From assembly GCA_965285935.1 (NCBI GenBank), contig OZ260667.1, forward strand, positions 49,538,001-49,602,000: DNA of 64,000 nucleotides, in the 5' to 3' direction. This DNA is from Ophelia neglecta (Eukaryota). Numbering within the stretch: the first letter of the stretch is position 1; each line of letters opens with the position of its first letter. Both the position numbers and the translations under genes were made by a program. Below, one piece after another: positions 6,203 to 43,849 of the stretch. The notes under the pieces are model-generated. The model made no database searches and had not been told where the DNA came from. It was given only the letters and a program-made list of their open reading frames with translations.

Positions 6203-9200
6203 TCATCGAGTTGTGCACAGTTTTTTGATAATATTTAAATCGCCTTTCTTCCTTAGCAGGACCGCAGTAAGTAGAGCCGCACAGCCGCCCATGAATTGTA
6301 GAAGTCCGCTTACTAACAGACCCGCGCTGTAATTTCCGGTGACGTCAAACAGCCAGCCTAGAAATAGTTCCAAATTTGAATATAGTATTGGCCGCATGTA
6401 TTATACTGGGCCTACTTCTTGGTTCATATTTCAAAAGAAAGTTGTTACAAAACTAAGGAAGTTTGCAACCTTATGGGCTATAGACCCATCGCTGATATAT
6501 CTCGACAAGATATATCAGTGATAGGCCCACGGGCCTCAAGAGGGATTCGAAATTTGTAAATCGTAAGGCTTACTATAGTTTACCTGACAGTAAGTTGGCA
6601 CAGACCCTGCCTGTTCCCTGTACTAGTAGTACCCATGACATTCCAAGAGGTAGCCTCTCCACACCAATCAAGGATACTACTACAGTGGGCTGTATACCCT
6701 GGCAAATACCTGAAAAATGAAATTAGTAGAGTTAATTTTCTGGCACTTTAAAAGAGCCTGTTGTTAACAAAATAGGTTTAATTCCGCAGGCCTACATACC
6801 AAAAAATATTCCATACGCGACACAGAAAGCGCCGTGCGCCCAAAAAACATGAGGGACGACTATTGAGACTGCCACTACTACTCCGGACATTGTGCAGGCG
6901 ATCCCATTTAGAGGACATGGCTCGATCAACTTTGCTATCACACCGGAAATGCCTCGCCCCGTGATCCCTGCGAATCCGATCAGGGAAGGCAAAAACGAGG
7001 CTTCGGTGGGGCTGACACCCACTACAATAGCTCGGGGAGTAGAACGGAGGTAGAAAGCGTCCATTGAGTACATCAAAGTCACTGAGGTTATTAGAAACAG
7101 CACAAAAGATGGCGACATAATACTGCGGTCGAAACAGTCTAGCAACTCTGCACAGCGCGGCTTTTGTTCTCTCCTTCCCTTAAATGTTTGAGAACTTAGC
7201 ACCGACGAAGTTGTTTTCATTTTAAACCCAAAACCATTTTCCTGGTGCTTCCACTTGGGAAGAGCTAACTTATCTGTCTTGGTGTCAGTAGTAGTACATG
7301 TAGTTGGTGAGATATGCACGCGTGGTAGGACCTTGGGAGTCCGGAACTTTGGCGGTGGTCTCATTAGTGCGACTGGCACAAACATTTGAACATTCGCCGC
7401 GCTAAGGGCCAGCATTGCTCCTCGCCAGCCATACGCGTCAATCAGCAAACGCGTTAAGGGGGAAAACGCGATTGCGAAGGTGCTGACCCCGGCGGACGCG
7501 ATCCCCGCGGCGATGGCGCGGCGTTTGACGAAGTATTGTTGTACTATGACGACAGTTGGAATGAAAGCCACCCCGGCCCCGGCTCCTGGAAATATATTGG
7601 AATTAAGTAACTTTATAATATGGAAACAATCATGAACACTCCAATGATATTCAAATCAAGTATTAAAGAACCAGTCTTATATCCTCAGTGGGGTAGTAAG
7701 AGAGATAGCCCTTTTCTTTGACCAGGGGGGGGTGGAGGGGAGAGGGGGAAAGGGGGGGGGGTAGGAGGGGTGAGGGGAGAAGGAGGGGTCACCTGTTGTT
7801 GCTAGTATTTCAAAGTTACGTTTCCTCTGGAAAAACTCCATCTCCCTCCCCCCTCAGCAAAAATTTCTGGTCCATCAAAGCAATGGTGATAATGATCTAT
7901 TCTCACTTCGTTACTGTCTAAATTTCAACGCCTTGAATTAATTTGTTTAATTGCATTGTTTGTTAATTGTTCGTTTAATGGCATTCAAAATAATTAATAC
8001 TTCAAATGTCATTTTTGACACAAAGCATGGTCTGTAGAAAAAAAAAACATGTATAGTGTAAATCCCTTGTCGCGAAATTGGATAAAATGTTTTGTAGGCC
8101 CATGTCCTGTTGGCCTTTAACCTCTAGACATGGCTGTGTGCCTTTTATCTATATAGGGTGATGTCCTGTAGGCCCATGTCACGTGGCCTATGTCCCCTAG
8201 GCCTGTGGGCCTTTGTTATGTAGGCCTTTGGCATGTAGACCTATGTCCTGTAGGCTATGTCCTTTAGGCCTATTACTGTGTCCTGTATGTTTATGTCTTG
8301 TAGGCCTATGTCCCCCAGGCCTGTGTCCGCAAGGCCTTAGGGCCTATGTCCTTGAGGCATATCCTGTCGGCCTATGCCATTTCCCTGAGTCGCCGTGCTT
8401 TCTTTTCCAAACCACTCCGTGTCATTATTCAACAACGAAATTCTCTGTCGAAAATATATAGTGAAATGTGAGGGGTGTTACTGCTCGGGAAAAGATGGTG
8501 TTCACAGTTTAAAGATTACCGGCAAGAATCCCGAAGGTCACCAAAAGACCCCACACGTCAGTGCAGAACGCTGCCGCCAGGTGTCCCACTGCAGCCAAGG
8601 TGACTCCCACGAGACAAATCTGACGACACCCATATCGTTTAGTGAGTGGTCCCCCTAGTAGTCCTACAGGGAAAATAAGCCATATATTAAAACATTGAAT
8701 TCACATCTGACCGTCCAACTTCGCGCGTGCCTAACTTCGCGCGCCTTAATTGAATCTCCTGCAATTTATTCAATACAGCCACGAATTGCCCCAGAAAAAC
8801 ATGTTTGTAGCTCTGATGATTATCTTTTGGACGGTACCATAAATGGCTCAGTGTATGTTTGTGGGAACGCTAGGGCCATTTTTTTAACTTGAAAATGAAC
8901 ATTATTTTGATTTCATTTTAACAAAGATCACATAAGTGGAAACGAATATTAGAAGAAGGCCCGTGAGACAGAAGGTAACAGATACATGCATGGAGGGTAT
9001 TATAAAGATCTTCTCTATATGCAGACACCCTCTCAATACAGACCACTGATACAAGAAAAATATGGTGCAGTGTATATGTAAAAATAACCTGTCTAAACAG
9101 ACCACCTCCATAATCAGACCAGTATTTTCTGACCCCTTGGTAGTTTAATTATCAGGTTTCGCTAATAATCTCGGCTATTGGTTGTGGAGTCAATGCGGAG

Positions 9201-9678
9201 GCGGAGGTCATGTGGTTTTCAGATTGGCACGACACAAACATCATCAGCGAACCAAGGGTTTAGGCTGACGGATAATTCAAGGGTTGGGGAAAGGGTTAAG
9301 GCAGGATTAATAGCTCTAGTATTCTCTCTAAATTTAGGAATTTACCTCCGCAAGGCTTCGCCCCTCCGCTTTTAATCAAATGTCTATAATCTCACCTGCT
9401 ATTGTTGATAGACCCAGCTTGCAGGCACCAAGCGCTCCGATCATAGTCTGTGATATTTTGAAAGTTTCCTCTAATTCGGTGATGAAAACTCCATACGACA
9501 CCGAGTTGATAGCCATGAGGGAAAATGCAAGGAACGCGCAGCCCACAATCACCCAACCGAAACCGCCTTCCGTGGTACGGTCCTGGTGACCAGCATCCGG
9601 TGTCTCTTCATCCTTAGATAACTCGTCTACGCCGAGGGACGCCAAATTGGTGTGGCTTGGGAAAGATTCGGTTGCCAT
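6203..9678 (-). CDS. SLC16 / monocarboxylate transporter (MCT) family MFS transporter, five exons
   Basis: Exons 9678-9396, 8663-8520, 7585-6800, 6709-6584 and 6357-6203, all GT-AG with phase-1 introns. Motifs: EGGFGWVIV (TM1 signature), LTKRYGCRQI (loop 2-3), QQYFVKRRAIAAGIASAG (SLC16 signature), LIDAYGWRGAML and GWLFDVTGNY. Large central cytoplasmic loop. Confidence 0.93.
8090..8380. repeat. Degenerate ~15-bp tandem repeat (GGCCTATGTCCTGTA-like) in SLC16 intron 2
   Basis: Many variants of AGGCCTATGTCC. This explains the Cys/Leu/Pro-rich spurious ORF 8213-8461. Confidence 0.7.
9020..9162. mobile_element. Partial CAGTGAAACCTG-family MITE
   Basis: AATAACCTGTCTAAACAGACCACCTCC...ATCAGACCAGTATTTTCT closely matches the interior of the copy at 27916-28093. 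Confidence 0.65.
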
Positions 9679-10416
9679 TTTGATTTAATAATTTGGCTTC
9701 TAGAATCTCCTAAACACTCGTCTCGTCTCAAGCTGCATTGGTAATTTATTTCCTCTGAACTGACAGAATTTTCAGATCGATTGGAAATCAAGATGGCTGC
9801 AGCGGTGTATTGGTCAACATTGTTCTCGGCCGCGATAACTCTTGAACCATATAGCCACGCAGATTTATTGCGTAAAGGATTAGGCCACAGGCCATCGACC
9901 CCACATCGAGTCAAAAGGTGCACGTGATCACTATTCATGACAATAAGTATACCCACAGCCACCAGCGAACAGTGTAAGGAACTTAGGTAACTCTGGACAG
10001 AAATATACAAATAACTGACATAAATAAATACAGAAGAAGTACACAGGTCAACAACCTTACAGCAAAACAAGCTTGCGAGGCTGACCAACCAACTAGAATA
10101 CAAGCACCTCAAGTCTTTATTTAGACCACGCAGGCCTATCACGTGTTTACCTCGTGGAATTCTGGGGGGTTACGGGTGAACTGGCGGATCCACCAGTTCT
10201 CATGCAAATTCCACGTAGATTACACGTGATTCCAGGAACGAGGAAAAGATGTGAAATTCGCGCGTGGAAAAAGATGTGGACTAATGGTGGAGGTTAATTC
10301 ATAATATCGGTTAATTACACGTAGCTTCCACGTTATTTAAGGAACGTTGAAAAGATGTGAAATTCATAGCTGCAAACGATGTGGAATATTGGCAAAGTAT
10401 TGGCGAAGTACATGTA

Positions 10417-14292: not shown

Positions 14293-16325
14293 ATGTCTTC
14301 ATATACATCTCGATTCAATAAAGACTGGTTGACACATAGTGAGTTCAAGGATTGGATCCAGGTTATGTTATCAGTAAAGCCACCGCAAAAGCAGAGATTC
14401 TTTGGGAACTGAAAACAGTGATGGCTCTTTCTCCTATAATGAGAGCAAAGGCATAGCCTGGCTGTTTCATGTAATGTTTCCTGACAGTGATATAGCTAAA
14501 GGATTCAAATGTGCTCCTTCAAAGGTCTCTTATCTCGTAGACTTTGGAATTCCACAATACTTTGGCGATATCCTTATGGACAAAATATGACAATCTGAAT
14601 GCTTTGTTGTATCATTTGATGAATGCCTCAACAAGATCACTCAAACTGAACCGATGAATGTTATTGTACGCTATTTTGAAACCGGTAGAGTCACAACGAG
14701 ATACCTTGGCTCGCTTTATGGGGCATACTCGAGCAACAGATCTTTTGGCCACATGTAATGAAAGAATCTCATACTTGAAGTACAGTGAAATGACAAAAAT
14801 TTTCATTGATGGGATAAAGATCAATTGGAAGGTTTTTGAGGAGCTTTCCAAGGAGCAAAATGAAAAAAATGCTGATTCTCCAAATCTACTTAATTTGGGT
14901 CTTCAAGTGGTACATGAGGCATTCAGCAACGGGCCCATCAAACAGAATGGAACCTTGATGGCATACTACGTGTATTGTGCTTTGTCTTCCATGATTCTCC
15001 AGCAAGGCGTGACGATTTTACAGCCATCACTGGATCAAGCCGTTTCTCACTGAAATTTTGTGGAACACGTTGGATAGAGGATGAAGGACTAGCTGTGCGT
15101 GCTATCGAAATTGGGCCCCATGTAAGAAATATATTAAGGAAATATTGAAAGAGCCAAAGTGTCAAGTACCTAAATGTACGTTATTCATCAGGATACAGGA
15201 GGCTGTTTATCATGATCCCCTTGTAGTTACAAAATTACAGAGTTTTTATCCTTGGCCAGGTTACTCAAACCATTCCTTGTCAAGTATCAGTCCAGTAAAC
15301 CACTTTTGCCACTTATGGCTCCAGATATGTGTCAACTGCTCAAGAATAATTTAATGTAGCGGTTTCTGAAGAAGAAAGTTCTCTATGCTGTAGATCAGAT
15401 GTACAAAGTGGCTAAAATTGAAATTGAAAAGAAGGACAATCAGTTACCTGCAAAACAAATGGACATTGGATTTGCAGTTAAGGCAGAACTAAAACTTGCA
15501 GAAGACAAAAGCAGTGAGTGTCCTCCAAGCACTAGAACTCAAGTCCAGGTCCTAAGATTGTTGACTGCATTAACAGCCAAAATGCTAGACAGATGCACAC
15601 TGAACTATTCACTCTTTCGTTCAATCGTTTGCCTTCAACCTCCTGTGATGCTTAATGATCCAGAAAAGGCAACATTAAAATTTGAAACTGCGTGGAAGAA
15701 GTTCAAGAACTTCTTGTCAGAAGTCGGCTCCAAACACCAAGTGGTCTTTACCAACTGGACTAAAGACGAAAGCCTTGACACTTTCTTTTATTCGTTCCTA
15801 GCAGACAAAGTCAATTTGAAGAAACCATGTAGTGTGCTACAGATGTAACTCACGCTGTCTCATGGCCAGGCATCTATAGATCGTGGGTTTTCTGTCAAAA
15901 ATGACCTTCTCGCCCCAAACCTTCAGGAGAACAGTCTTGTTGCTCAGCGTTTGGTTTATGACACTGTGAGATCCATGGACCTCAGTGTGGAAGATTTTCC
16001 AATCACACCAAATCTCCTAAAATCATGTGCTGTATCACACACGAAATACACACTGTACCTCGAAGAGAAGAAGAAAAACGAGGAACAGTCGGCAGTTGAC
16101 AAGAAAAGAAAGCATGTTCAGGACAATCTTGGAGAGGCCAAGATAAAACAGCAAAAGTTAGACGGTGGAGTAGGTCTTCTAAAAAAAGAAGCAAATGAGC
16201 TAGCAATTCAAGCAGAACTCAAGAACAATATTGCCCTTTGACCAAGCCAAATGCATTCCGACATAAGGCTGCAGAGCTCGTTAAAAATGACATCAAGGTT
16301 GTTGTAGGTGAATTTGAAGCATAAG
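14293..16325 (+). pseudogene. hAT-like transposase pseudogene (multiple frameshifts and stops)
   Basis: Fragments across frames: MSSYTSRFNKDWL...KDWIQ; MFPDSDIAKGFKC; FVVSFDECLNK (catalytic D); IFIDG; FHDSPARRDDF; KFCGTRWIED; LSHGQASIDRGFS (hAT C-terminal motif, catalytic E read as D); coiled-coil C-terminus. Confidence 0.8.
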
Positions 16326-20486: not shown

Positions 20487-21170
20487 TCACGAGCAAGAAA
20501 TCCACCTTGAGAGGAGATGTACGACACTGAACAGTAGTCCCAAATACACTACTACTGACGAACTCCTGTGGGAGTGGCTAGTACTGTATATTTTACTACT
20601 TCGTATCCCGTTACACTCACTTCTACCTATCCACCATTTGCGATAAAGACCATCCAAGTAACCGCTATCCTTGAGCATGCGCAGAGCCTTGTTAATTCTT
20701 TCCAAGTGGTCTGAATTTTTCTGGACAGCCAATGCGTAGCCGCGGTTTAGCAAAAAACGACCAACTGTCACAAGATCACATGGCTCGCGCATGGAAATGT
20801 ATTCCCCTATCGTGTTCGGTAAGACAAATCCGTACTTTTCTCGTCGCACCATCTCAATGCCTTCCTCATTTGTTGCAGTTAGAACCTTTGAACCTCGTTC
20901 GTCAAATCGTTGCATATGTCTCCACATCATTTTATATTCTGTTTCATTTGTCCTTTTGAAAGCGCGCAGGATCACTCCTCGGTCGAGCGTCCCATATTTG
21001 ATTTCTGATTGGTTGATAAGCTCATCGACGGAGCGTATTTTGACGGTGGCGCCGGCTGGCGCCTTTCGCAGTAGTACAGTGGCATGGACGGTCATGTAGG
21101 GTTCCGTGAAGTCTACCACGCTCGCTCGGTGTGACGTCACATACATCGGGGCGGCCGCCATTTCAGCTCT
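20487..21170 (-). CDS. Last exon of iGluR-LBD-only gene: end of S1, short linker, whole S2, hydrophobic C-terminal tail
   Basis: Acceptor TTTTCTCTAG|AGA at 21170; ORF track 20487-21161; AMPA/kainate-type motifs DFTEPYM, KYGTL, PCD, GYALA and KWW...EC. Confidence 0.92.
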   Translation of the reverse strand, partial: RAEMAAAPMYVTSHRASVVDFTEPYMTVHATVLLRKAPAGATVKIRSVDELINQSEIKYGTLDRGVILRAFKRTNETEYKMMWRHMQRFDERGSKVLTATNEEGIEMVRREKYGFVLPNTIGEYISMREPCDLVTVGRFLLNRGYALAVQKNSDHLERINKALRMLKDSGYLDGLYRKWWIGRSECNGIRSSKIYSTSHSHRSSSVVVYLGLLFSVVHLLSRWISCS

Positions 21171-24100
21171 CTAGAGAAAAGAAAGACAGTCACGTGATAA
21201 ATAAACACAGTACTGTTACGAGATGATGAACAACTCCACGAGTAGTTAGACATTTAAAATTTGAACTGTGAAATTGAATTTAACATCTGTGCTTTTTTCT
21301 TACCATCACATATTATCTGAACTTACATTAATGTCCTTAATTTTTAAAATCTATTTTAACCTAGAATAGCCGTAAAAATGCAATTTATTTGATTAATTGA
21401 TTCCTCATATTTAGAAGAGTTTCATAAATATGAATTTGAAAACGAAAACAAAGTGAACATAAATTCAGTTCTGTTATAATATATAATATAGTATACCAGG
21501 CATATAAATTGTTCAATTCAAGTTGGGTACATTTAAAAATATGAAGTTAAAACCCATTGGCCTAGGCGCATTTTTGGTTCCTCTGTGTAGGCATACAGTA
21601 CAGTAAAGCCGACCAATCAGCGATGCGCTTCTTCTGCACTGTGGTGTTGCTGCCTCCACAGGTAGCAGGTGGAGCACGGCCATCCAATATACAATATATA
21701 TCCAACAAAAATATGTGGCGCTTTTCTCATATACACGTCGACTATAGAGGTGAAGGCTTATATCTGTGAAAAGGCAATTTAACTGGATTTCAACCATGAT
21801 TTGATATTATACATCTCATAAAATTAGCTTCGTTTAGCAAATATATACCGTTGCGCTTAAATGTGTTTTCTGTTTACCAAACAACAGGTAAAAAAGGCGA
21901 ATATTTTAGGCCAATGAGATTTTCCAAATCTAGCGGCGGCTGCATAAACAAGAATATTTCTCATTAACCTATTGTGTTCATATGACGGAATTTAATGAAT
22001 TTGATTCCAATTCCAAGCAAAACTTTGTAAACCAACTTGACACCTCTTGGTAATATCACTCCAAAATATGACACGTTTGCTGTGATTTTGTTGCAGTTCT
22101 CTTGTAAATTGCATGTTTTGTGGAGATGTAACATTACCTTATAACGTATTGTTTTAAAATCTTCTTCTGCCAACTATATTTAACCTTTTTATTGTTCAAT
22201 AAATATATCCGTTGTCGGCGGCTCTTTACCGAACTTTTCCAAAGGACATTTTATTATTACATCTGCTGCGCCGTGGAGTAAAGTTGGTTGGCAAATTTGG
22301 GCGGACTGTTAAGACTGTTTACTAGTATTTCTGTGATTTACTAGTTCCAAGCCTATTAGTGCATTTTAGATACACACATATACGCGTTTCATCTCGACTT
22401 AAGTATAAATTACTCCACATCGGTTCCCAAAATTAACCATTATATATATTTTTTTTTTNNNNNNNNNNNNNNNNNNNNNNNNNNNNNNNNNNNNNNNNNN
22501 NNNNNNNNNNNNNNNNNNNNNNNNNNNNNNNNNNNNNNNNNNNNNNNNNNNNNNNNNNNNNNNNNNNNNNNNNNNNNNNNNNNNNNNNNNNNNNNNNNNN
22601 NNNNNNNNNNNNNNNNNNNNNNNNNNNNNNNNNNNNNNNNNNNNNNNTCAATAATTTCGTTTCTATATTAACAGGACATCACGCCCTGAAATAAAATATC
22701 GCCATTCTATCAAAGCAATCGATCCTATACAGGTGTAGTTTATCACAGGTAAAAAGGCGAATATTTCAGGCCAATGAGATTTTCCAAATCTAGCGGCGGC
22801 TGCATAAACAGGAATATTTCTCATTAACCTATTGTGTTCATATGACGGAATTTAATGAATTTTATTCCAATTTCAAGCAAAACTTTGTAAACCAACTTGA
22901 CACCTCTTGGTAATATCACAGACGTGTGTAGTTTATCACTGCACTGAGTTTCAGAGACATTAAGCAAAACAACTGCATGATCACCATGGGCGGTAAATCT
23001 ATGGTTCTTATTAACAGAAAGAAGATCACAGGGTAGATAGTGTTACGAATTATTAATCAACGATACCTCGATAAACATGCTTGGAATTCATATCATGTGC
23101 CTGATATTCCACTTATATTTCTCACACAATTTAAAAAGCAAGCTCGAAAACTAGGATACACGTTATTTGAATGCGTCTTAATCAAATGTAGGCACTGTCA
23201 TTTTTTCATGAACATAACACCTTGATCTGGCTGTAGTCAGAATCCGTGAAAAGACCATCTCTTTCAAAATGTGGTTCTCAAAACTAAACTACTCTTTATT
23301 TAATTAAATTCATGCATGAATGTATTTATGCAGTTGGCATTTTACATCTTGACATATACTTAATACTATCATGTTGTTAAATGGTTACCCGGCCTACATA
23401 GCTTTTTTTCGTCAGGACAAAATACCAATTAACAGATTAATACACGACTTGAGCAAACTTGGTCGAATTACTTTACATTACCCGTCTAAACTTTCACCAA
23501 TGGTCTTCTCTAAAAAGCCGGGTTATTGGAACGAAAAACGCTTATATTTCAAGGAATAAAATCTCCTTGGGCACACAAGCTTAATCATTTGAGGCGTTAA
23601 TGTCATAAATAAATCATCGCTTGTATCTACTCAACTAGCTGGCGCTTTATGACGCCTAGATGGCGCTCTATGACGCCTAGCTGGCGCGTTATGACGCCTA
23701 CCTGGCGCGCTATGACGCCTACCTGGCGCTCTAAGACGCCTAGCTGGTGCTCTATGGCGCCTAGCTTGTGCTCTATGACGCCTAGCTGGTGCTCTATGAC
23801 GCCTAGCTGGCACTCTTTGATGCCTAGTTGGCGCTGTATGACGCCTAGCTTGTGCTCTATGACGCCTAGCAGAGGCTCTTTCACGCCTAGCTGGCGCTAT
23901 ATGACGCCTAGATGACGCTCTATGACGCGGAGCTGGGGCTCTATGACGCCTAGCTGGTGCTCTATGACGCCTAGCTGGTGCTCTATGACGCCTAGCTGGC
24001 ACTCTAAGGCGCCTAGTTGGCGCTCTATGACGCCTAGCTTGCGCTCTATGACGCCTTGCTGGGGCTCTATGAAGCCTAGCTGGTGCTATATGACGCCTAG

Positions 24101-27100
24101 CTGGCGCTCTATGACGCCTCGCTGGCGCACTATTACGCCTAGCTGGTGTTCTATGACGCCTAGCTGGCACTCTTTGACGCCTAGTTTGCGCTCTATGACG
24201 CCTGGCTCGCGCTCTATGACGCCTAGCTGGGGCTCTATGACGCCTAGCTGCTGCTCTATGACGCCTAGCAGCTGCTCTATGATGCCTAGCTGGTGCTCTA
24301 TGACGCCTAACTGGTGCTCTATGACGCCTAGCTGGCACTCTTTGACGCCTAGTTGGCGCTCTATGACGCCTAGCTTGCGCTCTATGACGCCTAGCTGGTG
24401 TTCTATGACGCCTAGCTGGATCTCTATGACGCCTAGCTTGCGCTCCATGACGCCTAGCTGGGGCTCTATGACACCTAGCTGGTGCTCTATGACGCCTAGC
24501 TGGCGCTCTATGACGCCTAGCTGGCGCTCTATGACGCCTTGTTTGCGCTCTTTGACGCCTAGCTTCGGCTCACTGACTCCTAACAGACGCCCTATGACGC
24601 CTAGCTGGTGCTCTATGACGCCTAGCTGCGCTCTATGACGCCTAGCTGGTGCTCTATGACGCCTAGCTGGTGCTCTATGACGCCTAGCTGGGGCTCTTTG
24701 ACGTCTAGCTGGCACTCTTTGATACCTAGTTGGCGCTCCATGACGCCTAGCTGGGGCTCTTTTACGCCAAGCTGGCGCTCTATGACGCCGAGCTGGTGCT
24801 CTTTGACGCGTAGCTGCTGCTCTATGACGCCTAGCTTGCGCTCCATGACGCCGAGCTGGGGCTCTATGACACCTAGCTGGTGCTCTATGACGCCAAGCTG
24901 GTGCTCTATGACGCCTAGCTGGCGCTCTATGACGCCTAGCTGGTGCTTTATGACGCCTAGCTGGTGCTCTATGACGCCTAGCTGGCGCTCTATGACACCT
25001 AGCTGGTGCTCTATGACTCCTAGCTGGTGCTCTATGACGCCTAGCTGGTGCTCTATGACACCTAGCTGGCGCTCTATGACGCCTAGCTGGTGCTCTATGA
25101 CGCCTAGCTGGCGCTCTATGACGCCTAGCTGGTGCTCTATGACGCCTAGCTGGTGCTCTATGACGCCTAGCTGGCGCTCTATGACGCCTAGCTGGTGCTC
25201 TATGACGCCTAGCTGGTGCTCTATGACGCCTAGCTGGTGCTCTATGACGCCTAGCTGGTGCTCTATGACGCCTAGCAGGTGCTCTATGACGCCTAGCTGG
25301 TTCTCTATGATGCCTAGCTGGATCTCTATGACGCCTAGTTGGTGCTCTATGACGCCTAGCTGGCGCTCTATGACGCCTAGCTGGTGCTCTATGACGCCTA
25401 GCTGGTGCTCTATGACGCCTAGCTGGTGTTCTATGACGCCTAACTGATGCTCTATGACGCCTAGCTGGTGCTCTATGACGCCTAGCTGGTGCTCTATGAC
25501 GCCTTGCTAGTGCTTTATGACGCCTAGCTGGCGCCTTATTACTTTTAACAGAGTTGTATGACGCCTAGCTTGGGCCCTATGACGCTCTTTGAGGCCTCAA
25601 TGGCGCTCTATGACGCCTAACTGTCGCTCTATGGCGTCTAACTAGCGCTCTATGGCGCCTTCCTCTACATAAATAGAGTCAGTGAGCTTTCTGAGGTGGG
25701 ATTTCTACCATTGTGGCGTCCATGAGAACTTGCAGAGAAAATACTAATATTTACTTTACGAAAAAGAGCCTTCAGTTGCGGAGACCAAGCCACCTAACTT
25801 CCTTAACAATGCATTATTCCGGTCACGTGATCGAAGCTGGCGGCGATCGGTTGAGATATTTAGGCTGTCAGTTAAGTCTAAACGTTGCTTTTATGAAGGA
25901 AAAGCATGTCATCGCGTTTTTTACATTCAAACTTTGATTAATATGGTACACGTCTGACGTTTTCGTCTTAGCGAATTAATTATAGTTCCTTATCTTCCAC
26001 GATACTTATAAAAGCATTATCATATTTAATAGACCCAGTCTTTGGACTAAAACGAAGTCTGTGCCAACCAATTTTCGCATTAAACAACTAACAAAAGTCG
26101 CCTCCGTGAAAAGCCTTTGCCATTCAGACAAAAACCTTTCCTATCAATATATATATAGGGTTATTTACACCAACGTCGTAATAAATAGGTCTAGGATCTT
26201 CCTTTTCCGGTTTATACTATAATTAGATTAGTTATCCGCCATGCCACTAGGCCAATCCACTCTGATGAGCTTCCCAGTGCACATTTTAAGATGATATTGA
26301 TTTTGCTGAAGCACCTCGTTAATTTTTTATAGCCATGTCGATCTCGGTTAAGACTGATGTCTTATTTCTTATTACTCCCTGGTTCTCCTGATCCTGGAAA
26401 TAAATTGGTAATGAACACCCTCAAAATAGTGTAGAACTTGGATACGGACACCTGCCGGATGTAGGGAACGGTGGGGTGCCCGGGGTAAGTGGCTGGAGGT
26501 GTCGAGGGTCCAGACTACCGCTGTCTTTACACACGTTCCTGCTGGTAATTTCTATTGGTCGTCTGGGGTGGTACCTCTTCCGAGACTGAGGTCTTAGCTC
26601 CCACCCCTCTCTCTCCACCACCTTTCTGGGTGGAGTTATCACCCCCATCCTCATAGTGAAAACAGACACAATTTAATATTCGAAATTTAACTCTTTAGCT
26701 GGAGGCGTCGAGAGTGCTTACTTCCACAGTCCTCACATACATTCCTGCCGGCAAATTCTATTTGGCTTCTGGGCGGTTGCCTCAAATGGAAGTTCTAAAC
26801 CGCTCCCCATCCCTTTTCTGGGAAGCTTTATCATCCCCTTACCCTCAATGGTTCCATAATTGCAGACACAATTATGGAACTTTAACTGTCTTTTTTTTTA
26901 TTGCCAAATTAACTCCCGGCTGATAAAAATAATAAGCCGTGGGAAGACTACCAGTGTCAGCCGAGCACGGGTTTACCCAAATACACCCACGGTCTGTGGT
27001 CCTACAGCAGACATTTAAGTCTAATCTGTGATCGACCATTTTATTAAGTATTTTTGAAATTAACTTGGTATACCAAATGATAGGAATTGAAAACGTGGGT

Positions 27101-29648
27101 GGGGGGGTGGGGGGGTGGGGTGGCGTCTGGTGAGGAGGTCAGCTAGTCACAATTATGCCATTCATTTTTCTACTTCGAATCTACTTACTCTGGAGTACGG
27201 CACAATGCCAGTTTAAGATTGTACGATGATATCAAGGTACGACGCATGTACATCACACGGTGTATCAATCACTGGCATGCATTACACTAGGGAGAAAGCA
27301 CGTGGTAGAGGTCGCTCGAGGAGACCAAAACAGGTTAGGTTCATTTACCGTCCAAACAACCAACGAGCCATGCTTTCTCTATCTGAAGGCTCCCTGCCCG
27401 CGGTTCACTACTTCTAGAACTACATGATCTTGAAGGGGAGAGATAGCGGCGGGTGCAAAATATACTGTACTACACAATGTCCATGTAGAAATAGGTCACC
27501 GGCAGCCTTGTGCCATCACCACAGCAAATTAACTACGGTTAGGCTACAAATATTATGGTTATAATGATACTGAATGTGTTTTTACCATGACTTTCACTAG
27601 CGCAAATCAATATATATTAATGTTTCATCAATGTAGTGCATAGAACCTTGTCGACTTGCTCGATTTGATCATTTCAACGTATTGTTTGTTGGCACAAAGC
27701 AATCAGTTGGCTTTGATTTTTAAATATTCACTAGACTAAGATCGTGCAGATTTCCCACAGCCACATGGATCGATGGGGTGGCATTGTTTTCCGTATAAAA
27801 AGAACGAGTTTATAAAGTAGTATTTTTTTCCAATCATGACAAAGCAATTCGTTGCCATTGCGTCTCTTGACTGTAAAATAATTTATCATAAACCGTATCA
27901 ATATTTAGCCAAATACAGTGAAACCTGCCTTAAAGACCACCTCTATTATCAGACCAACTGCCAATTAAGACCACTGATATGACGACCATGTTACATACTT
28001 ACTATGTTAAATAACCTGTCTAAACATACCACCTCCGAAATCAGACCAGTATTTTCTAGTCCCTTTGGTGGTCTTAATGGACAGGTTTCATTGTAATCAA
28101 ATTATTTCCTATAGTTAACTTCCACGGATTTTCTGCCTACTCACCCCTGACAGCAGTTCGCCGACCATGCCATCCCAGGTGCCGTCTGCCTGTCGGTATC
28201 CATAGCTACCGTCTGCCACGTGCGTTAGCTGGTACCGAAATCCGGCTATCTGTGAAAGCTTGTCGACAAGGTCGGCTACAAAACCAACGTACGGACGCTC
28301 GGAGGACGTCGTCTTGTTGTTGTAATCCCAGTTTCGCATTAAATACGGCTCAACCTGGTAAATGGTTAGAAACGGGTTACGAAGGTACAATTTCAATTTG
28401 CGCTACTCCAAATTGATCCGCAACATTCATTCAAACAGTGAGAGTAAAAAATGATAATATGGAGCGTGATAAGTTCAGCAGAACAGGAAGGCAAAGGTGT
28501 GAGACAGGTTTGCAAATATTAATCCAATGAGATGGACAATTTTGTCTAAACTTACATTTCATGCAAGTCTTAATGGAGCGATAATTATGTCATGGGCATG
28601 CAGTTATTTACTGGAAGGCGGGTGGGGGTGGGGTTGATGGGCAATACACCATTGTGGGAAGGTTACTATATACATTATAAGAAATGTATATACCCAGATG
28701 CTGGAATCGAGGCCCTCGGTCGCAAGGAGTTAACCGCGGTAATCATATGCTAATGAGCTGCGAATCGGGCCGCACATGCGCAGAAGTGTCCGGACGAGCC
28801 AATTTGTAAACAAACAGCCCCATCAATGGGAGCCCCAGCAATGCGGAATAGCCAGAGAAAACTTTTGTATATTTTCTGCGCGGATAATGATTGAACATGG
28901 AAACAACTCATCAATAATACACCGGGAAGAAATGTTGACAGGAGTCTTGTTGATTATTGATGACAAGCTGCGATACAAAGAGGTTTTTTCGTTACAAATG
29001 TCCACTGTCAGCAATCTGGCCAGCACGTGGTGTTGTCAGACCGTTACCGATACGTAAAGGGGCATTATGGTCTATTTGTGACGTATACAACAATACTTGG
29101 TGTTCAAAGTAGTCATAAATCACACATATTCATTAAACAAAATTGATTTTTGACCGAATATTTAGCGGAAGCAAGTACAATGCGAAATGCACATATCATT
29201 TTCGAATATGGCCCCTAACGACTGGATCTCCGAGGCTATCGCTGAAGATATCTGTGGGAAAATAACATCACCAACGCATGTGGCATGCTACTTGAGCAAT
29301 AATCCTACCTTCCGATTCTCTGTACATACATATTTTAAATAATGTTACATGTACCCTCCGACTACGCAAATTTATTGCTGTTAGTGTTTTGGTGACTGCT
29401 GTTCGCTCGTCTTCCTCGTTGTGAACACAATGGCGGCTCTCGAAATTCGCGCATAAAATCCCGCGTACAGCGTGATCTCGTGTGTGGGTAACCTATAACC
29501 ATTTGCGCAATGTGTAAGGAGGGACTGATTCCAATCTCTGGGTACATACATCTCTCAAATTAGTGAAAAAAGATTAATGCACGCACCAACACACTGGTTA
29601 CCCGCAGCTTGGAGCCACTCTCCCCATAACGAGTCGCTGCATCAACAT
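20487..29648 (-). CDS. iGluR ligand-binding-domain-only protein (S1 fused directly to S2, no ion channel, putative GPI anchor); first (signal peptide) exon not identified
   Basis: Exons 29648-29587 (xVDAATRYGESGSKLRVTSVL), 28354-28145 (VEPYLM...GFVADLVDKLSQIAGFRY...VADGSYG...WDGMVGELLSG) and 21170-20487 (RAEMAAAPMYVTSHRASVVDFTEPYM...IRSVDELINQSEIKYGTL...REPCDL...GYALAVQKNS...LYRKWWIGRSEC...). GT-AG introns, phases 0 and 0, about 318 codons with no internal stops. Confidence 0.9.
21884..22919. repeat. ~175-bp direct duplication (21884-22059 and 22745-22919) on either side of the assembly gap
   Basis: ACAGGTAAAAA(A)GGCGAATATT...CACCTCTTGGTAATATCAC occurs twice with a handful of substitutions. 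Confidence 0.9.
22459..22647. other. Assembly gap (189 N)
   Basis: Run of N. Confidence 1.
23634..25660. repeat. 21-bp minisatellite (CTCTATGACGCCTAGCTGGTG), ~95 units, intronic
   Basis: Uninterrupted tandem units. It accounts for all the MTPSWCS, ARRHRAP and LGVIEHQ repeat ORFs. Confidence 0.97.
27916..28093. mobile_element. MITE, CAGTGAAACCTG family
   Basis: TA|CAGTGAAACCTGCCTTAAAGACCACC ... GGTGGTCTTAATGGACAGGTTTCATTG|TA. Confidence 0.85.
28145..28354 (-). CDS. S1 exon of iGluR-LBD-only gene
   Basis: Acceptor TTTACCAG|GTT, donor GGG|GTGAGT; motifs EPYLM, GFVADL, DGSYG and WDGMVGEL. Confidence 0.92.
29587..29648 (-). CDS. 62-bp exon carrying the first beta-strand of S1 (KLRVTSVL)
   Basis: Strong acceptor TTTCCCTTTCAG|AT and donor TTG|GTGCGT. 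Joins in frame to give KLRVTSVLVEPYLM, comparable to GluA2 KTVVVTTILESPYVM. Confidence 0.8.
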
Positions 29649-32420: not shown

Positions 32421-35400
32421 TCCCCGATTGAACATCAGCCTCCAATAGCCTGAGGGTCATTCATTTTGATCAACCCCAACACCGTGTCTTCACTTTAGTA
32501 GATGAAGATGCAGGAGTAGTTTAATGAAAAGACACAATTCCTCTGGGCGAATTAGCAGACGGCTCTCTACTCGCTATGGATATAAATGTTTTCACCCGCC
32601 AGGTTTGCATTATCACCGAAAATGGTGGTGAATTTCACATCGGATGATTAAACGAGTTGTTCTATTCAGTTAAGTATGCTGTTGTAAGAAGGGTCGAAGG
32701 ATACCGCAAACATTGTTTATATCGTCCAGATTGCATACATTGTAATCAGAGACCTCAATGTAAATTACTATGAAATAAAGAACTTCCTCGTCTTGTTTAT
32801 AACACGATATCAATGGGGAACATTGATGCGGTAAGCGGCCCCAGGTGGCAGCACACTGTGAACAGGTCCCTCTGTACTTCCTGTTTGCTGCTAACTGTGT
32901 GAAGACATGTAAATGCACCGGCATATTGGAATTAAACCTCTCAAAACCTTGCTGTTAAATTCCACTGCCTGTCTTATTCAGTATGTGATCAAATGAGTTC
33001 GTTTGAAGTCCAGAGAAAATGGTAAAATGGCCAAAAAGCAATATTTCTAGGAGTTAATGGCAGGAACTGCTTTCAAAAACTTACTAATTGGCTATTTGGG
33101 TATTGTTCTTTTCTGCTTCTTGTTTATAATCAACATACAGAGAAAATGGCACTACAGATGGCCATGGATAAAACTTTAATTGCAACCAAGACAATGTAAT
33201 ATGTTAACGGGGGTCCCAGCAATGCATGGAATAGTCGTACCAAGTGGGTTTTCAATTAACCCTGAAGCGCCGTTATTTGCAATTTGTTAAAGTGGTTCGG
33301 CTCGTCTTTTATACATTAACAACAAAGCTACTAGCTATAAACCTTGTCAACATAGACACTGGCAATATTCTAGTGCTGCCATTAAGTTTGTATCGCATGC
33401 ATTTCAATGAAATAAAGTACCGACGTTATTTGAGCGCAAACCGAGCCGCAATGCCGGCAGACGCCATCGGAATAGTTCATCGTTTGGGTCTAAGTACAAC
33501 AAATGACCGAGACTGCTGCGCAGTCCTTGTTCGGCCAGACAAACAACCACGTGACGTGAGGGCTAACGAGCTGAAAAACGGCCTTAGTACCCATTGGCTT
33601 GTTTTTGTTTGTCATTTACATCCACTTACATCCGGGCACCCGCGGCAGGTGCCATATAACGACTAACGAACCCCTTCCTCCTTGGCCAGTCATCACTAAA
33701 AATGGTAGTAAACTCTGCCGGAAAGCTGCGGGCGTTGATGGTAACGGAAGGCGGGAACAACGTGCCCCCCCCCCCCCTTGAATACACATACTTTCCCCCG
33801 TCCCAACACTATCTACAAATTCAAAACAAACAGAAAACATACCATTGCAAATGACAGCTCTTCTAGATATTTAAGGGCTTCAATTATATATAAATATCAG
33901 CATGCTTTCATAATACAATGGCTACTAGTTGAGTATCAATTATACCATGATCAGGGCCCATAATACAGCAATATACCATGCCATGATGTACTCCTGTGTC
34001 ATGGAAGGTTTATGATTCGACCCTCCAAGCAGGGACTTAATATTCTTATATATGACTGAAACATGGATGTTATGGCTTACCAGATAAGTGTAATACTATG
34101 GCTATACAAGTGAAGACGGACACATCCATCTCCGGGGGCGGGGTCAGCCACATCACGGGAAATCAGGACAACCCTCTTCTTCTAGTACCCCATCTGATCA
34201 AATGAAATGTAAAACATTTTATTCTATAAGAAAATGGGTAATACGGAATTGAGGAATTATATTTTGATAACGTATGGTTGTGCGTGCTTTGTGAAATTGG
34301 GAAAATCCAACCGTACACCGAAAGCGATTCTTGTGTTAAAATCGTGACATTCAAATGTTGATTATAATCAATGCCTACACAATTGCAAAATGACTTTTCA
34401 ACCTTTTCTCAATTGGTAATATTTCATGTGATGCCAGGTCCATGCATGTGTGTACACTTGTAATTATTAAAATATAATCTCGTGACATTTGAACACCACA
34501 AGTCAATATTGTTTCCATAGATATATTTGTCACAAAAATTCAATGTCATTCTTGATATAACAAAAGTGTGTGTGTATGACATTGTTTCAAGGTATAAAAA
34601 CGCAGTACTTTGAAAACCACTGAAGTCTGAGAGCATAAAACGGGAAATAGTCCGTAGTAAGCCAAAATACATTGTGAGCAATTAACCGTAAGAGAATGAA
34701 AAATAACCCTTACACCTTATTGCACTTTAGTTCACAGGCAACTTTGTATAGTTGTCGGTTTCGCCATTTTTCTCTAATTATTCTGAGCGCGTTTATTGAC
34801 CATTAAAACATTAGCTCGGCGGCTTTTAGAGTATAACTAAACGGCCTTGCTTGAAACCATTAAATGGCCCAATATATGGTGGACACCCTTGTATAGCTGT
34901 CAGTGACATCAGCCATGTTGTCCAGCAAATCGTTGGAGCATAATATAAATCACATTTCTATAACCTCTATAGTTACCTAGTTTAAGGCGAAGTAACCATG
35001 AGCAGGTGCTAAAAGCAATAGTTACGAAATGATGTTTAACAATTTTCCACCCCATAAGTGTATATAATGAGCAATTCTTAGCATAGTCGTAATTCTAGTG
35101 CCTCGTATTGTTCACTCCCAAATATGAATAGTGATTGCCAAAAACCCTATTCATACTTTGTGCATATGATTTCTTTTGGAATAAGAGAACCTAAATTTTG
35201 TATTTTTGCAATTCTTAATGCTATAAAATAATCAATTGCCGTGTGATTCATTCAAAAAAATTTGTGCAAAAATGCATGATTATCTGCACGTTGTTTTGTA
35301 GTTGCTATTACACAGTACGATCTAGGTTATTATGCATTAATTATTATATTCTATGTATATTTACCAAAATTAACAATAAAAACTCTTGCGATTATGATGA

Positions 35401-41734: not shown

Positions 41735-42925
41735 AAGTTTATTCAATCAATGAAACTAGTACAAGCTTGTACATTGAATATACACCGATATTTACCTATA
41801 TGAGATCGGGAGAGTAATATAAAGTCTACCGTTAGTACATAAAATACTGTTAGTACATAAAATAACCATAAACATTATAATAAACTGACATAAACTGACA
41901 TCACTGATTGCTATGAATTTTTAAGGCTTTGTCTATAAATATGGCTAAGTTATTTAAGGTTTTTTTCTAGCCACAGTTAACAAGAGAAATAAATTTATAC
42001 ATGTTAGGCCTCACTCTGAAGTATGGCGGAATATATTTTAGTCTAAGTTGCTGGTATGAGGTACATTCAAAGAGTACATGAAATTCATCTTCAATTTTAC
42101 CACAATGCTGGCAAAGTCTCTGATTATAAGGAACTGGATTCCTACCCCAGGAGCCCGCCTCTACTTTGAGTCTATGATTTCTGGTACGAAACTTACATAT
42201 GGTAGTTACACGGTTACTGGAGAGTCCAGCTGTGACATACTTTGGCAGACTAGTCAAACTAGTATCCTCAATTAAACCCTTGTAAAATATACCCTTAGAA
42301 GATGATGTTAAGTTTCCATCCATATTTTGCTGGGCTGTATCCAATAACCTCTGTTTTAACATAGAAATAAATAACACATCATTCCCCGGCCCCTGTGCGT
42401 CCCACACTTCGCCAAAGCCATATGTAAATAGTAAAGTTTTCACACTTTTTGTCCAGTTGGTAACACCATGGTTTTCCATAAATTGATACAATTTCTTCGT
42501 TAATCTATTACCGTCCATATGGAGTATTTTCAACCAATACTTGACAATTTTTACATATCTACCAACATACAAAGGTGCTCTTCCCATCTCCCTGTAAACA
42601 AACTCGTTCTTTGTATTACTACGTACACACATTAACCTATTACAAAATGCCAAGTGCACTTTCTCAATGTCCGGTGCTAAATGAAAACCCCTGGCTTCTG
42701 AACCATAGGAAAGAACAGGCAGTATAAGTTTGTCAAAAAGTTGAATTCGTTCCGTAATTGAAAATTTAAAACTATAAATGCACTGATAATATTTGAAAAG
42801 AGCTTTGCGTGCTTGTCCAGCAATAGTTTTTTGTGCCACAGTCCAGCTACCGTTTCCAGAAAAAGTAACACCTAAGTAACAGAAATGCTTTACAATCTCC
42901 AATTCAACACCATTATACATAAAAC
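41735..42925 (-). mobile_element. 5'-truncated LINE: 3' end of ORF2 plus 3' UTR
   Basis: 317-aa ORF: EIVKHFCYLGVTF (post-RT), LFDKLILPVLSYGSE, and FRTRNHRLKVEAG...RLCQHCGKIEDEFHVLFEC (C-terminal cysteine/histidine domain). Clade (CR1-like or RTE-X-like) not determined. Confidence 0.9.
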
Positions 42926-43849
42926 TACATGGATATAGAGAGAGAGAAATTGTTGCTTACAAAATAATATCTTAGACTGAGATATGTTGCCGGCTGGAAG
43001 ATTTTTCGACATTTTATGATCAGTGTGGATTCAGAATCAAGTCCAATAAGAACAAACGTTATATAACAGATGTCCAAGAGACATTGGATTCCCGCCAACC
43101 ATAAACGAATATACTTAATCTCGTAAAGTAACGCCGGCGTGGAGACTTGGCGGCCATGTTGATTCACTGGCCCGCCTGGTGGATTTCTCCTCTCACAAGA
43201 CGTAACGTTACTAGTGGTGGCACACATGTACACAGAACCAAAGAAGTGCATATGGTCCTAGGATTGCGCCATCTAGTGTACGCTGTGCTCAGGCCGATGA
43301 AAGAACTAGACATAGGGGAGGGATTGCCCCAGTCTATAGCATCGTGAACTTTCTGTATCGACAAGAGCGTGCTATTGCACTTTAAAAAGAAGTGCTATGC
43401 TATTTGCCCTGTCACCATAATATTTTGAAAGTATATACCCGCTTATAGCTAACACTATTGTATACTTTGAGCACATTTTGGGGTTGAACGCATTTCTTTT
43501 GCTGGTAATCAATTTCCAGCCTGGATCTACCATGATATTTCACTATGATCCATCATTTTATAGTTTTGCTCGATGGGGTGAGGGCGATATTAAGGTAGGT
43601 GGAAGCGAACTGTTAACACTTGCCTCGATTCCTTATCCCTGGATGTCATATAAATTTTGAGCTCAATGATATATTCTACGATTACCATGTTATATGTAGG
43701 CGATCTTACTTTAAATAAATACATTAAATACTCGAAGCATTCGCAATTCATAGGACAGCACATCAAAACACAGACCCCACATATAAACCGGCACTCTCAT
43801 CAGCATATACACCTACTATATCCTACACTACAATATTATAGTTAATTTT

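Follow-up and report, generated by a model that had tools for sequence, protein, structure and literature searches.

A gene on the minus strand of a 64,000-nucleotide window of the Ophelia neglecta genome (contig OZ260667.1, positions 49,538,001 to 49,602,000) is predicted to encode the ligand-binding clamshell of an ionotropic glutamate receptor (iGluR) in which the glutamate pocket has been remodelled. The arginine that binds the alpha-carboxylate (R485 of mature GluA2) is retained, and the contacts to the amino group and the gamma-carboxylate are lost. This pattern had been noticed in a preliminary description of the same DNA; it is confirmed, and it is stronger than was stated there. It is also the signature of an entire subfamily, a point absent from that description, and G653, N686, and I708 are nearly invariant within it.

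Gene structure and domain layout

The minus-strand frame from 21170 to 20487 is open for 227 amino acids and matches the S1S2 cores of AMPA receptors (phmmer against the PDB, E 8e-35). Joining it to three upstream exons gives an open frame of 334 amino acids (Table 1), the four-exon splicing being a prediction from genomic DNA. When the window was scanned upstream of exon 2 for a methionine, a hydrophobic core, and a phase-1 donor, exon 1 was the sole candidate; a further in-frame ATG lies upstream of its start, at 34153. The donor of exon 2 has the top motif-scan score (19 vs 11 for the next donor) and the exon has a counterpart in paralogue L016, while the acceptor of exon 3 is common to all six paralogues of the genome. 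Exon 4 is covered in one piece by Logan contigs from three runs of one sample, runs that are possibly the source of the assembly itself, and its coding part carries no listed letter differences, which argues that the substitutions described below are not an assembly error.

The predicted protein would comprise a signal peptide, an iGluR S1 half fused to S2, and a GPI-type tail, with no channel. The S1–S2 fusion can be read directly within exon 4, where S1 passes into S2 through a linker of about eight residues; the M1–M3 segment and M4 of iGluR channels are missing, and there is no PF00060 hit. Membership of the iGluR ligand-binding domain (LBD) superfamily follows from the PF10613 and PF00497 hits, from the PDB match, and from the fold of a modelled relative, P0103 (Z 34). 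Insect-type ionotropic receptors (IRs) are defined by the ion-channel domain PF00060 together with PF10613 (PMC2924276), and the missing channel segment places this protein outside that class.

By inspection, the predicted protein has a signal-peptide-like start, small residues suited to an omega site, a polar spacer, a hydrophobic end, and no cytoplasmic tail, as would suit a GPI-anchored protein, although the end may instead be a plain C-terminal membrane anchor. Full-length relatives with a matching layout are P0085 of Dimorphilus, P0104 of Capitella, and P0103. A motif after C773, G-I/V-K/R-S-S-K-I-Y-S (window 20612-20577, minus strand), recurs in many members of the subfamily before the presumed anchor site. 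Two other pore-less clamshells, P0217 and P0214, have Pro or Gln at 705 and continue into a stalk of 350-450 residues, rich in Ser, Thr, and Pro, that leads to a hydrophobic end; they look like mucin-stalked forms that would hold the domain off the membrane.

Table 1. Features of the clamshell gene (window positions; residue numbers of mature GluA2).
Feature	Position	Strand	Remarks
Predicted exon 1	34081..34129	-	ATG and signal-peptide-like stretch, phase-1 donor
Predicted exon 2	29587..29648	-	S1 start, first beta strand to position 401; AG/GT ends
Exon 3	28145..28354	-	S1 upper lobe; V402, Y405, Y450, Y452; PF10613 E 7.9e-17
Codon V402	28354-28352	-	upstream exon
Codon Y450	28204-28202	-	upstream exon
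Codon Y452	28198-28196	-	
Exon 4	20487..21170	-	S1 end, short linker, whole S2, tail, stop; PF00497 and PF10613
Upper-lobe pocket segment	21126..21149	-	P478, M479, Y480 (for T), R485 kept
Codon P478	21149-21147	-	
Codon Y480	21143-21141	-	
Codon R485	21128-21126	-	CGA
S1-S2 linker	21042..21065	-	replaces M1-M3 channel segment; read from sequence; aligns with engineered S1S2 linker
Helix F segment	20970..20987	-	L650, R652, kept G653; S and T replaced by V654 and I655
Codon R652	20981-20979	-	
Codon G653	20978-20976	-	
Codon V654	20975-20973	-	
Codon I655	20972-20970	-	
N-glycosylation sequon	20940..20948	-	lower lobe; conserved in subfamily
N686	20868..20870	-	sole conserved polar residue of lower-lobe pocket
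Beta10/alphaI segment	20808..20828	-	F702, L704, P705 (for E), I708
Codon P705	20819-20817	-	CCG
Codon Y732	20738-20736	-	kept
C-terminal tail after C773	20490..20612	-	polar spacer and hydrophobic end, no cytoplasmic part; GPI-signal-like by inspection

Substitutions in the binding pocket

The register proposed in the preliminary description was reproduced by a HMMER alignment and by a multiple sequence alignment with an AMPA-type row (P0145), in which the motifs align without gaps: APMYVTSHR in the window and APLTITLVR in the AMPA-type row, YGTLDRGVI and YGTLDSGST, FVLPNTIGEY and YLLESTMNEY, RGY and KGY. The numbering agrees with that of PMC13648236, where Y471, P499, T501, and R506 are the mature numbers plus 21. 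Y450, P478, R485, and Y732 are retained, all read at codon level, and the substitutions T480Y, S654V, T655I, and E705P are established by alignment and codons alike. E402V, which had also been claimed, is borne out but rests on the predicted splice, by which RVTSVL is joined to VEPY (vs TTILESPY); all six paralogues of the genome have V, I, or L at this position, directly after the AG acceptor of exon 3, and Tyr or Phe at 450. V402 and Y450 belong to an upstream exon, outside the interval to which the pocket had been assigned, and Y732 lies 2-4 bases outside it.

Among the channel-type iGluR rows collected, R485 and an acid at 705 (Glu or Asp) are present in 50 of 50, T480 in 47 of 50, and T655 in 43 of 50. 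Against these counts, the combination found in the window is far from ordinary drift. Between them, the arginine and the acid at 705 hold the amino-acid backbone of the ligand in place (PMC6307864), and the acid is kept in 92% of 204 iGluRs (bioRxiv 2023.08.03.551817); the window protein has Pro where an amino-acid-binding LBD has this acid. Conversion of the GST motif of GluA2 to SSV or SAV sharply lowers glutamate potency, T655 being the most important residue and its loss by itself having a strong effect (PMC13648236), and of the G-S-T motif of glutamate-selective receptors only G653 is kept here (G-V-I). Since T655 is lost and E705 is replaced throughout the subfamily, glutamate is an unlikely ligand, as the preliminary description had proposed. 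Selectivity for glycine or D-serine is associated with a residue other than Gly at 653 or a bulky residue at 704, together with an acid at 705 (PMC13648236), whereas the window protein has G653, L704, and P705. G653 is present in all glutamate-selective receptors aligned in the same study, disfavours glycine, and marks receptors for larger ligands; its retention, together with the missing acid, argues against glycine.

The preliminary description went further and held any other alpha-amino acid to be improbable as well. This is likely but unsafe, and prediction of ligands from such residues comes with a warning of unreliability in PMC13648236. Millimolar glycine, alanine, and D-serine still elicit responses from the Trichoplax receptor AKDF19383, in which position 705 is Tyr (bioRxiv 2023.08.03.551817), and nonpolar residues at 480 occur in amino-acid receptors (PMC13648236). 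The window protein might thus be a weak binder of free alpha-amino acids, most likely large hydrophobic ones (Leu, Met, Phe), which would be held by R485, the P478 carbonyl, and cation-pi contacts to Y480 and Y732. Y450, P478, R485, G653, and Y732 are all kept, as this would require, and an Owenia relative, P0211 (Y480, L655, E705), looks like a hydrophobic amino-acid binder. However, Pro has nothing polar to offer at 705, the three side chains close to the amine or the distal acid have all changed in concert, and millimolar affinity would probably be of little use to a pore-less capture protein. We consider weak amino-acid binding quite unlikely on balance.

Two further residues may flank the mouth of the cleft. 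Y452 and R652 occupy the positions cross-linked in a GluA2 A452C/S652C mutant (named in a PDB title); Y452 occurs in all six paralogues and Arg or Lys at 652 in five of them. Together they might act as a cation-pi latch bridging the two sides of the cleft, or else as a second basic site.

Conservation of the Pro705 subfamily

The residue at position 705 among 185 short rows is Pro in 145, Glu or Asp in 33, Gln in five, and Ser and Lys in one each. Four rows were dropped, two of them (P0152 and P0182) truncated and misaligned at 705 and two (P0145 and P0222) AMPA-type cores, leaving a Pro705 set of 150 rows (144 P, 5 Q, 1 S) and a sister pore-less set of 31 rows with E/D705. The Pro705 rows, being related to one another and in many cases fragments of a single exon, do not represent independent events; because position 705 defined the set, free tests are limited to the remaining positions. 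Alignment columns 402-450 are unreliable for single-exon rows, and positions 402 and 450 were taken from paralogue exons and codons.

Within these limits, conservation is highest in the cleft. R485 is present in 105 of 105 Pro705 rows and ranks first among 219 scored columns, with G653, N686, P705, I708, and P478 all in the top 18. Position 480 is Tyr in 59 rows, Phe in 29, Leu in eight, and another residue in three (n=99). G653 is found in 134 of 137 rows, and the two positions that follow it are aliphatic or Met (I/V/L/M at 654 in 130/137; I/L/V/M at 655 in 134/137). N686 occurs in 145 of 149 rows, I708 in 144 of 150, and Tyr (115) or Phe (26) at 732 among 149. The joint pocket signature is carried by 90 of the 99 Pro705 rows that cover all five of its positions. 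No Asp or Glu stands at any of 14 pocket positions of exon 4 in the 150 Pro705 rows, vs 31 of 31 sister rows, a count in which 705 defines the set and the other 13 positions are free. The arginine is thus left without a conserved acidic partner in the cleft. R485 itself is also found in 28 of the 31 sister rows, as it is in every channel-type row, and part of the constraint on it may therefore be structural.

Outside the cleft, the lower-lobe N-glycosylation sequon is present in 126 of 138 subfamily rows vs 6 of 31 sister rows, and a hydrophobic C-terminal end in 124 of 145 and 26 of 30, respectively. The AMPA-type dimer surface is variable. At its D1-D1 positions, which we take to be L483, E486, K493, L748, L751, K752, and E755, the commonest residue in the subfamily accounts for 18-34% of rows, and the window protein has S, A, E, K, R, M, and D. 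The suggestion that the protein is a structural partner is thereby weakened as far as AMPA-type packing is concerned. A query of the ESM Atlas with the relative P0015 returned generic iGluR clusters only.

Structure models

One AlphaFold model each was considered for a subfamily relative, P0103 (F480, R485, I654, I655, P705; pLDDT 87.3), and for a control with a canonical pocket, P0094 (pLDDT 92.4). The P0103 model superposes on the AMPA cores of GluA2, GluA3, and GluA4 (PDB 1ftj, 3r7x, 4u2r) with Z 33-34 and rmsd 1.4-2.0 A over about 255 residues. It lies 1.9-2.4 A from antagonist-bound and apo GluA2 and 3.4-3.7 A from glutamate-bound forms. The control is equally near to glutamate-bound (5ybf, 2.0 A; 6hcc, 1.9 A) and apo forms (1.9-2.0 A) and 2.7 A from the most open antagonist form, 3r7x. 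The comparison hints at a cleft held wide, suiting a bulky ligand or none, with the qualifications that AlphaFold's choice of conformation is not a measurement, that the alignments were 91 rows deep for P0103 and 26 for P0094, and that P0103 is 45% identical to the window protein.

An open cleft would also suit a vestigial pocket, in which R485 serves folding or trafficking, bulky side chains fill the cleft, and the protein works through its surface, be it in adhesion, as a scaffold, or as an ancillary subunit. There are precedents among the IRs: in IR8a both the arginine and the acid are kept in a locked pocket, and in IR76b and IR93a the cleft is filled; residues that formerly contacted the ligand have taken on structural roles (bioRxiv 2026.09.30.755715). 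Conservation of the arginine is consequently no proof of a ligand. Moreover, a hydrophobic residue at 705 can bypass the ligand in GluN1 and in a Trichoplax receptor. In the IR cases, however, the charged residues find new partners, whereas none of the 150 Pro705 rows has a pocket acid, and in this subfamily it is the AMPA-type dimer surface that varies and the cleft that is most conserved. A vestigial pocket is in our judgement unlikely.

Origin, paralogues, and selection

The Pro705 pocket marks a subfamily on the trees as well. In trees built without 18 pocket columns the Pro705 label needs two changes, both with FastTree (190 rows) and with IQ-TREE (83 of these), vs means of 61.5 and 26.0 for shuffled labels; with the pocket columns kept (107 rows) it needs one (SH-aLRT 93). 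Pro705 members with a species name, a minority of the rows, come from Paralvinella, Capitella, Helobdella, and Dimorphilus, all annelids. P0211 of Owenia, with V402, Y480, and L655 yet E705, is placed near the base of the subfamily with moderate support and may be an intermediate. As regards an origin from the AMPA class, the best matches are AMPA-type, yet in the trees the pore-less rows fall outside those of the channels; deep support is weak, and few named references and no named IR were included.

Six Pro705 copies on the chromosome of the window share the pocket, and at least six sisters with E/D705 occur in the same genome. The six copies are under purifying selection (dN 0.17-0.63, dS from 1.6 to saturated). 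The changes might alternatively represent decay in a relaxed or dead gene, the gene model being known from DNA sequence alone; given the intact four-exon frame, the same pocket in 90 of 99 relatives, and dN far below dS among six paralogues, decay is extremely improbable.

The sister loci L007-L012 (G000:C12) and further hits on C1, C2, C5, and C7 are pore-less with varied pockets, all with E/D705. The pocket of L007 is canonical, L010 has Arg480 and Asp654, and L011 has His485; the pore-less family may include several distinct ligand specificities. P0241 of the insect Bradysia, which is pore-less with a canonical pocket, and P0211, which has His-rich ends, have no hydrophobic tail and are likely secreted forms.

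Candidate ligands and roles

The reading we favour, which in our estimate has about an even chance of being correct, is that the protein is tethered to the cell surface and binds a bulky carboxylate that has no free alpha-amine, such as a lipophilic acid, an N-acyl amino acid, or a peptide C-terminus. The simplest explanation for an invariant arginine that has no acid close to it is an anionic ligand. In GluA2 structures the backbone NH groups of 480 and 654 help R485 to hold the alpha-carboxylate, and backbone groups are untouched by the substitutions, so the same grip would be available here. With side-chain geometry taken over from GluA2, Y450 would stack on the ligand and L650, V654, I655, L704, I708, and Y480 would hold its hydrophobic body. 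G653 would give room for a group larger than that of glycine, and E705P would take away the counter-charge for an amine. Two types of ligand would fit, a lipophilic or aromatic acid and an N-acylated amino acid or peptide C-terminus, for which the P478 carbonyl would be free to accept the amide NH. With no pore and no cytoplasmic tail the protein cannot signal alone; at the cell surface it would serve to capture, buffer, or present the ligand, perhaps in an open, antagonist-like cleft.

A hydrophobic monocarboxylate, as suggested in the preliminary description by analogy with acid-sensing insect IRs, remains a plausible ligand, and the analogy holds for the arginine, which is conserved in acid-sensing IRs and not in other IRs (PMC8575457). 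It does not extend to the rest of the pocket. Drosophilid IR75a keeps all three contacts (R, T, D/E) (PMC8575457, PMC7882480), and RproIR75b of Rhodnius keeps the acid (bioRxiv 2026.09.30.755715, PMC8575457); of the two features, retention of the arginine is therefore a known mark of acid sensing and loss of E705 is not.

The ligand might instead be a betaine. Bacterial type II binding proteins hold betaines by combining a Tyr/Phe cage with Arg or Lys (PMC9732360), and in a binder of glycine betaine, proline betaine, carnitine, or DMSP, R485 would hold the carboxylate while the rings of Y405, Y450, Y480, and Y732 enclose a quaternary ammonium, a group that does without hydrogen-bond acceptors. 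By alignment, four tyrosines would lie near the site, and 480 and 732 are aromatic (Tyr or Phe) in 88 of 99 and 141 of 149 rows. A betaine nevertheless appears highly unlikely: eight of the 99 rows have Leu at 480, the lower lobe is aliphatic rather than aromatic, and the open P0103 model is unlike the tight box expected. Betaine-binding proteins are also absent from the 50 best matches of a wide fold comparison, although this is a weak test.

A more specific form of the favoured carboxylate binding would make the GPI-tethered annelid family an extracellular reader of acylated carboxylates. The arginine would grip an N-acyl amino acid or the C-terminus of a peptide or protein. The lower lobe would accommodate the last hydrophobic side chain, and the chain would exit through the open cleft. 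We rate this proposal as rather improbable; if true, an extracellular PDZ-like domain would have been made from a neurotransmitter pocket.

Genomic neighbourhood

SLC16/monocarboxylate-transporter-like exons occupy window positions 6792-9684 on the minus strand (MFS_1 E 5.5e-16; best PDB match MCT1, E 2.8e-9). The gene lies about 11 kb downstream of the clamshell gene on the same strand, a suggestive position beside a predicted acid binder. A functional link was nevertheless set aside: among the matches listed, the five paralogues have no such neighbour of their own, and the closest first-exon match of the SLC16-like gene to any paralogue, at about 165 kb, is this same gene. Elsewhere, at G000:C9:68.74-68.82 Mb, at least 15 SLC16-like first exons are clustered in tandem. 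The intron between exons 3 and 4 contains a GC-rich tandem array with a 21-base unit and long repetitive frames (23613-25564), and a 189-base run of N lies at 22459-22647. The long frames 41967-42956 and 14658-16241 have no Pfam hits; by eye they resemble a LINE C-terminal part and a DNA-transposon-like piece, and they look like mobile-element remnants.

Comparison with known systems

No published description of a pore-less or GPI-anchored iGluR LBD in annelids, or of a Pro705 pocket, was found in the openly accessible main texts searched; the same holds for the sister clamshells, and nothing on the Pro705 family was found in work on annelid IR and iGluR repertoires. In the parts available, a spionid IR study (PMC11730519) deals with channel-bearing IRs only, and PMC2924276 with channel-bearing receptors only. 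A recent iGluR phylogeny discards sequences that lack M3 or are shorter than 350 amino acids (PMC13648236), a filter by which the family is easily missed. Members of the family may be present among the sequences listed in the supplements of PMC6307864, PMC2924276, or PMC11730519.

Characterised iGluR-type clamshells in the published work searched are amino-acid binders, channel-borne, or locked co-receptors. The Pro705 subfamily has lost its channel along with the chemistry for binding an amino group, and its new pocket persists among distant annelids, with several copies in a genome. This retention points to one ligand or partner that is important to these animals. Its members are natural S1S2 constructs, the form of iGluR most readily expressed, crystallised, and screened, which makes the question open to direct testing; the sister proteins with canonical pockets provide built-in controls and an evolutionary series.

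The nearest structural counterparts are the S1S2 cores of GluA2, GluA3, and GluA4, with which the window protein shares fold, register, Y450, P478, R485, G653, Y732, and the C718-C773 pair. Unlike these, it is the product of a natural gene without an ATD or channel, with a GPI-type tail, five substitutions in the pocket, and an unconserved dimer surface. The sister clamshells (Owenia P0093, Helobdella P0220, Ridgeia P0175, Bradysia P0241, and L007-L012) have the same S1–S2 fusion but keep the amino-binding acid in 31 of 31 rows and mostly T/S480 and T655. The acid-sensing insect receptors IR75a, IR75b, and IR84a share the arginine equivalent to R485, proposed to hold the carboxylate of the acid; they are channel subunits with divergent LBDs, whereas the window subfamily is channel-less and its pocket uniform. 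Loss of the central acid is shared with Trichoplax AKDF19383 and with GluN1 D732L/F, in which Tyr, Leu, or Phe rather than Pro takes its place in full, constitutively active channels. The acetylcholine-binding protein (AChBP) is likewise a ligand-binding domain that stands free of the kind of ligand-gated channel from which it derives (PMC3423370), but it has an unrelated fold, forms soluble oligomers, and keeps the ligand of its parent, while the pocket of the window protein has changed. In its mode of working, the window protein would resemble a solute-binding clamshell or a free binding domain of the AChBP type.
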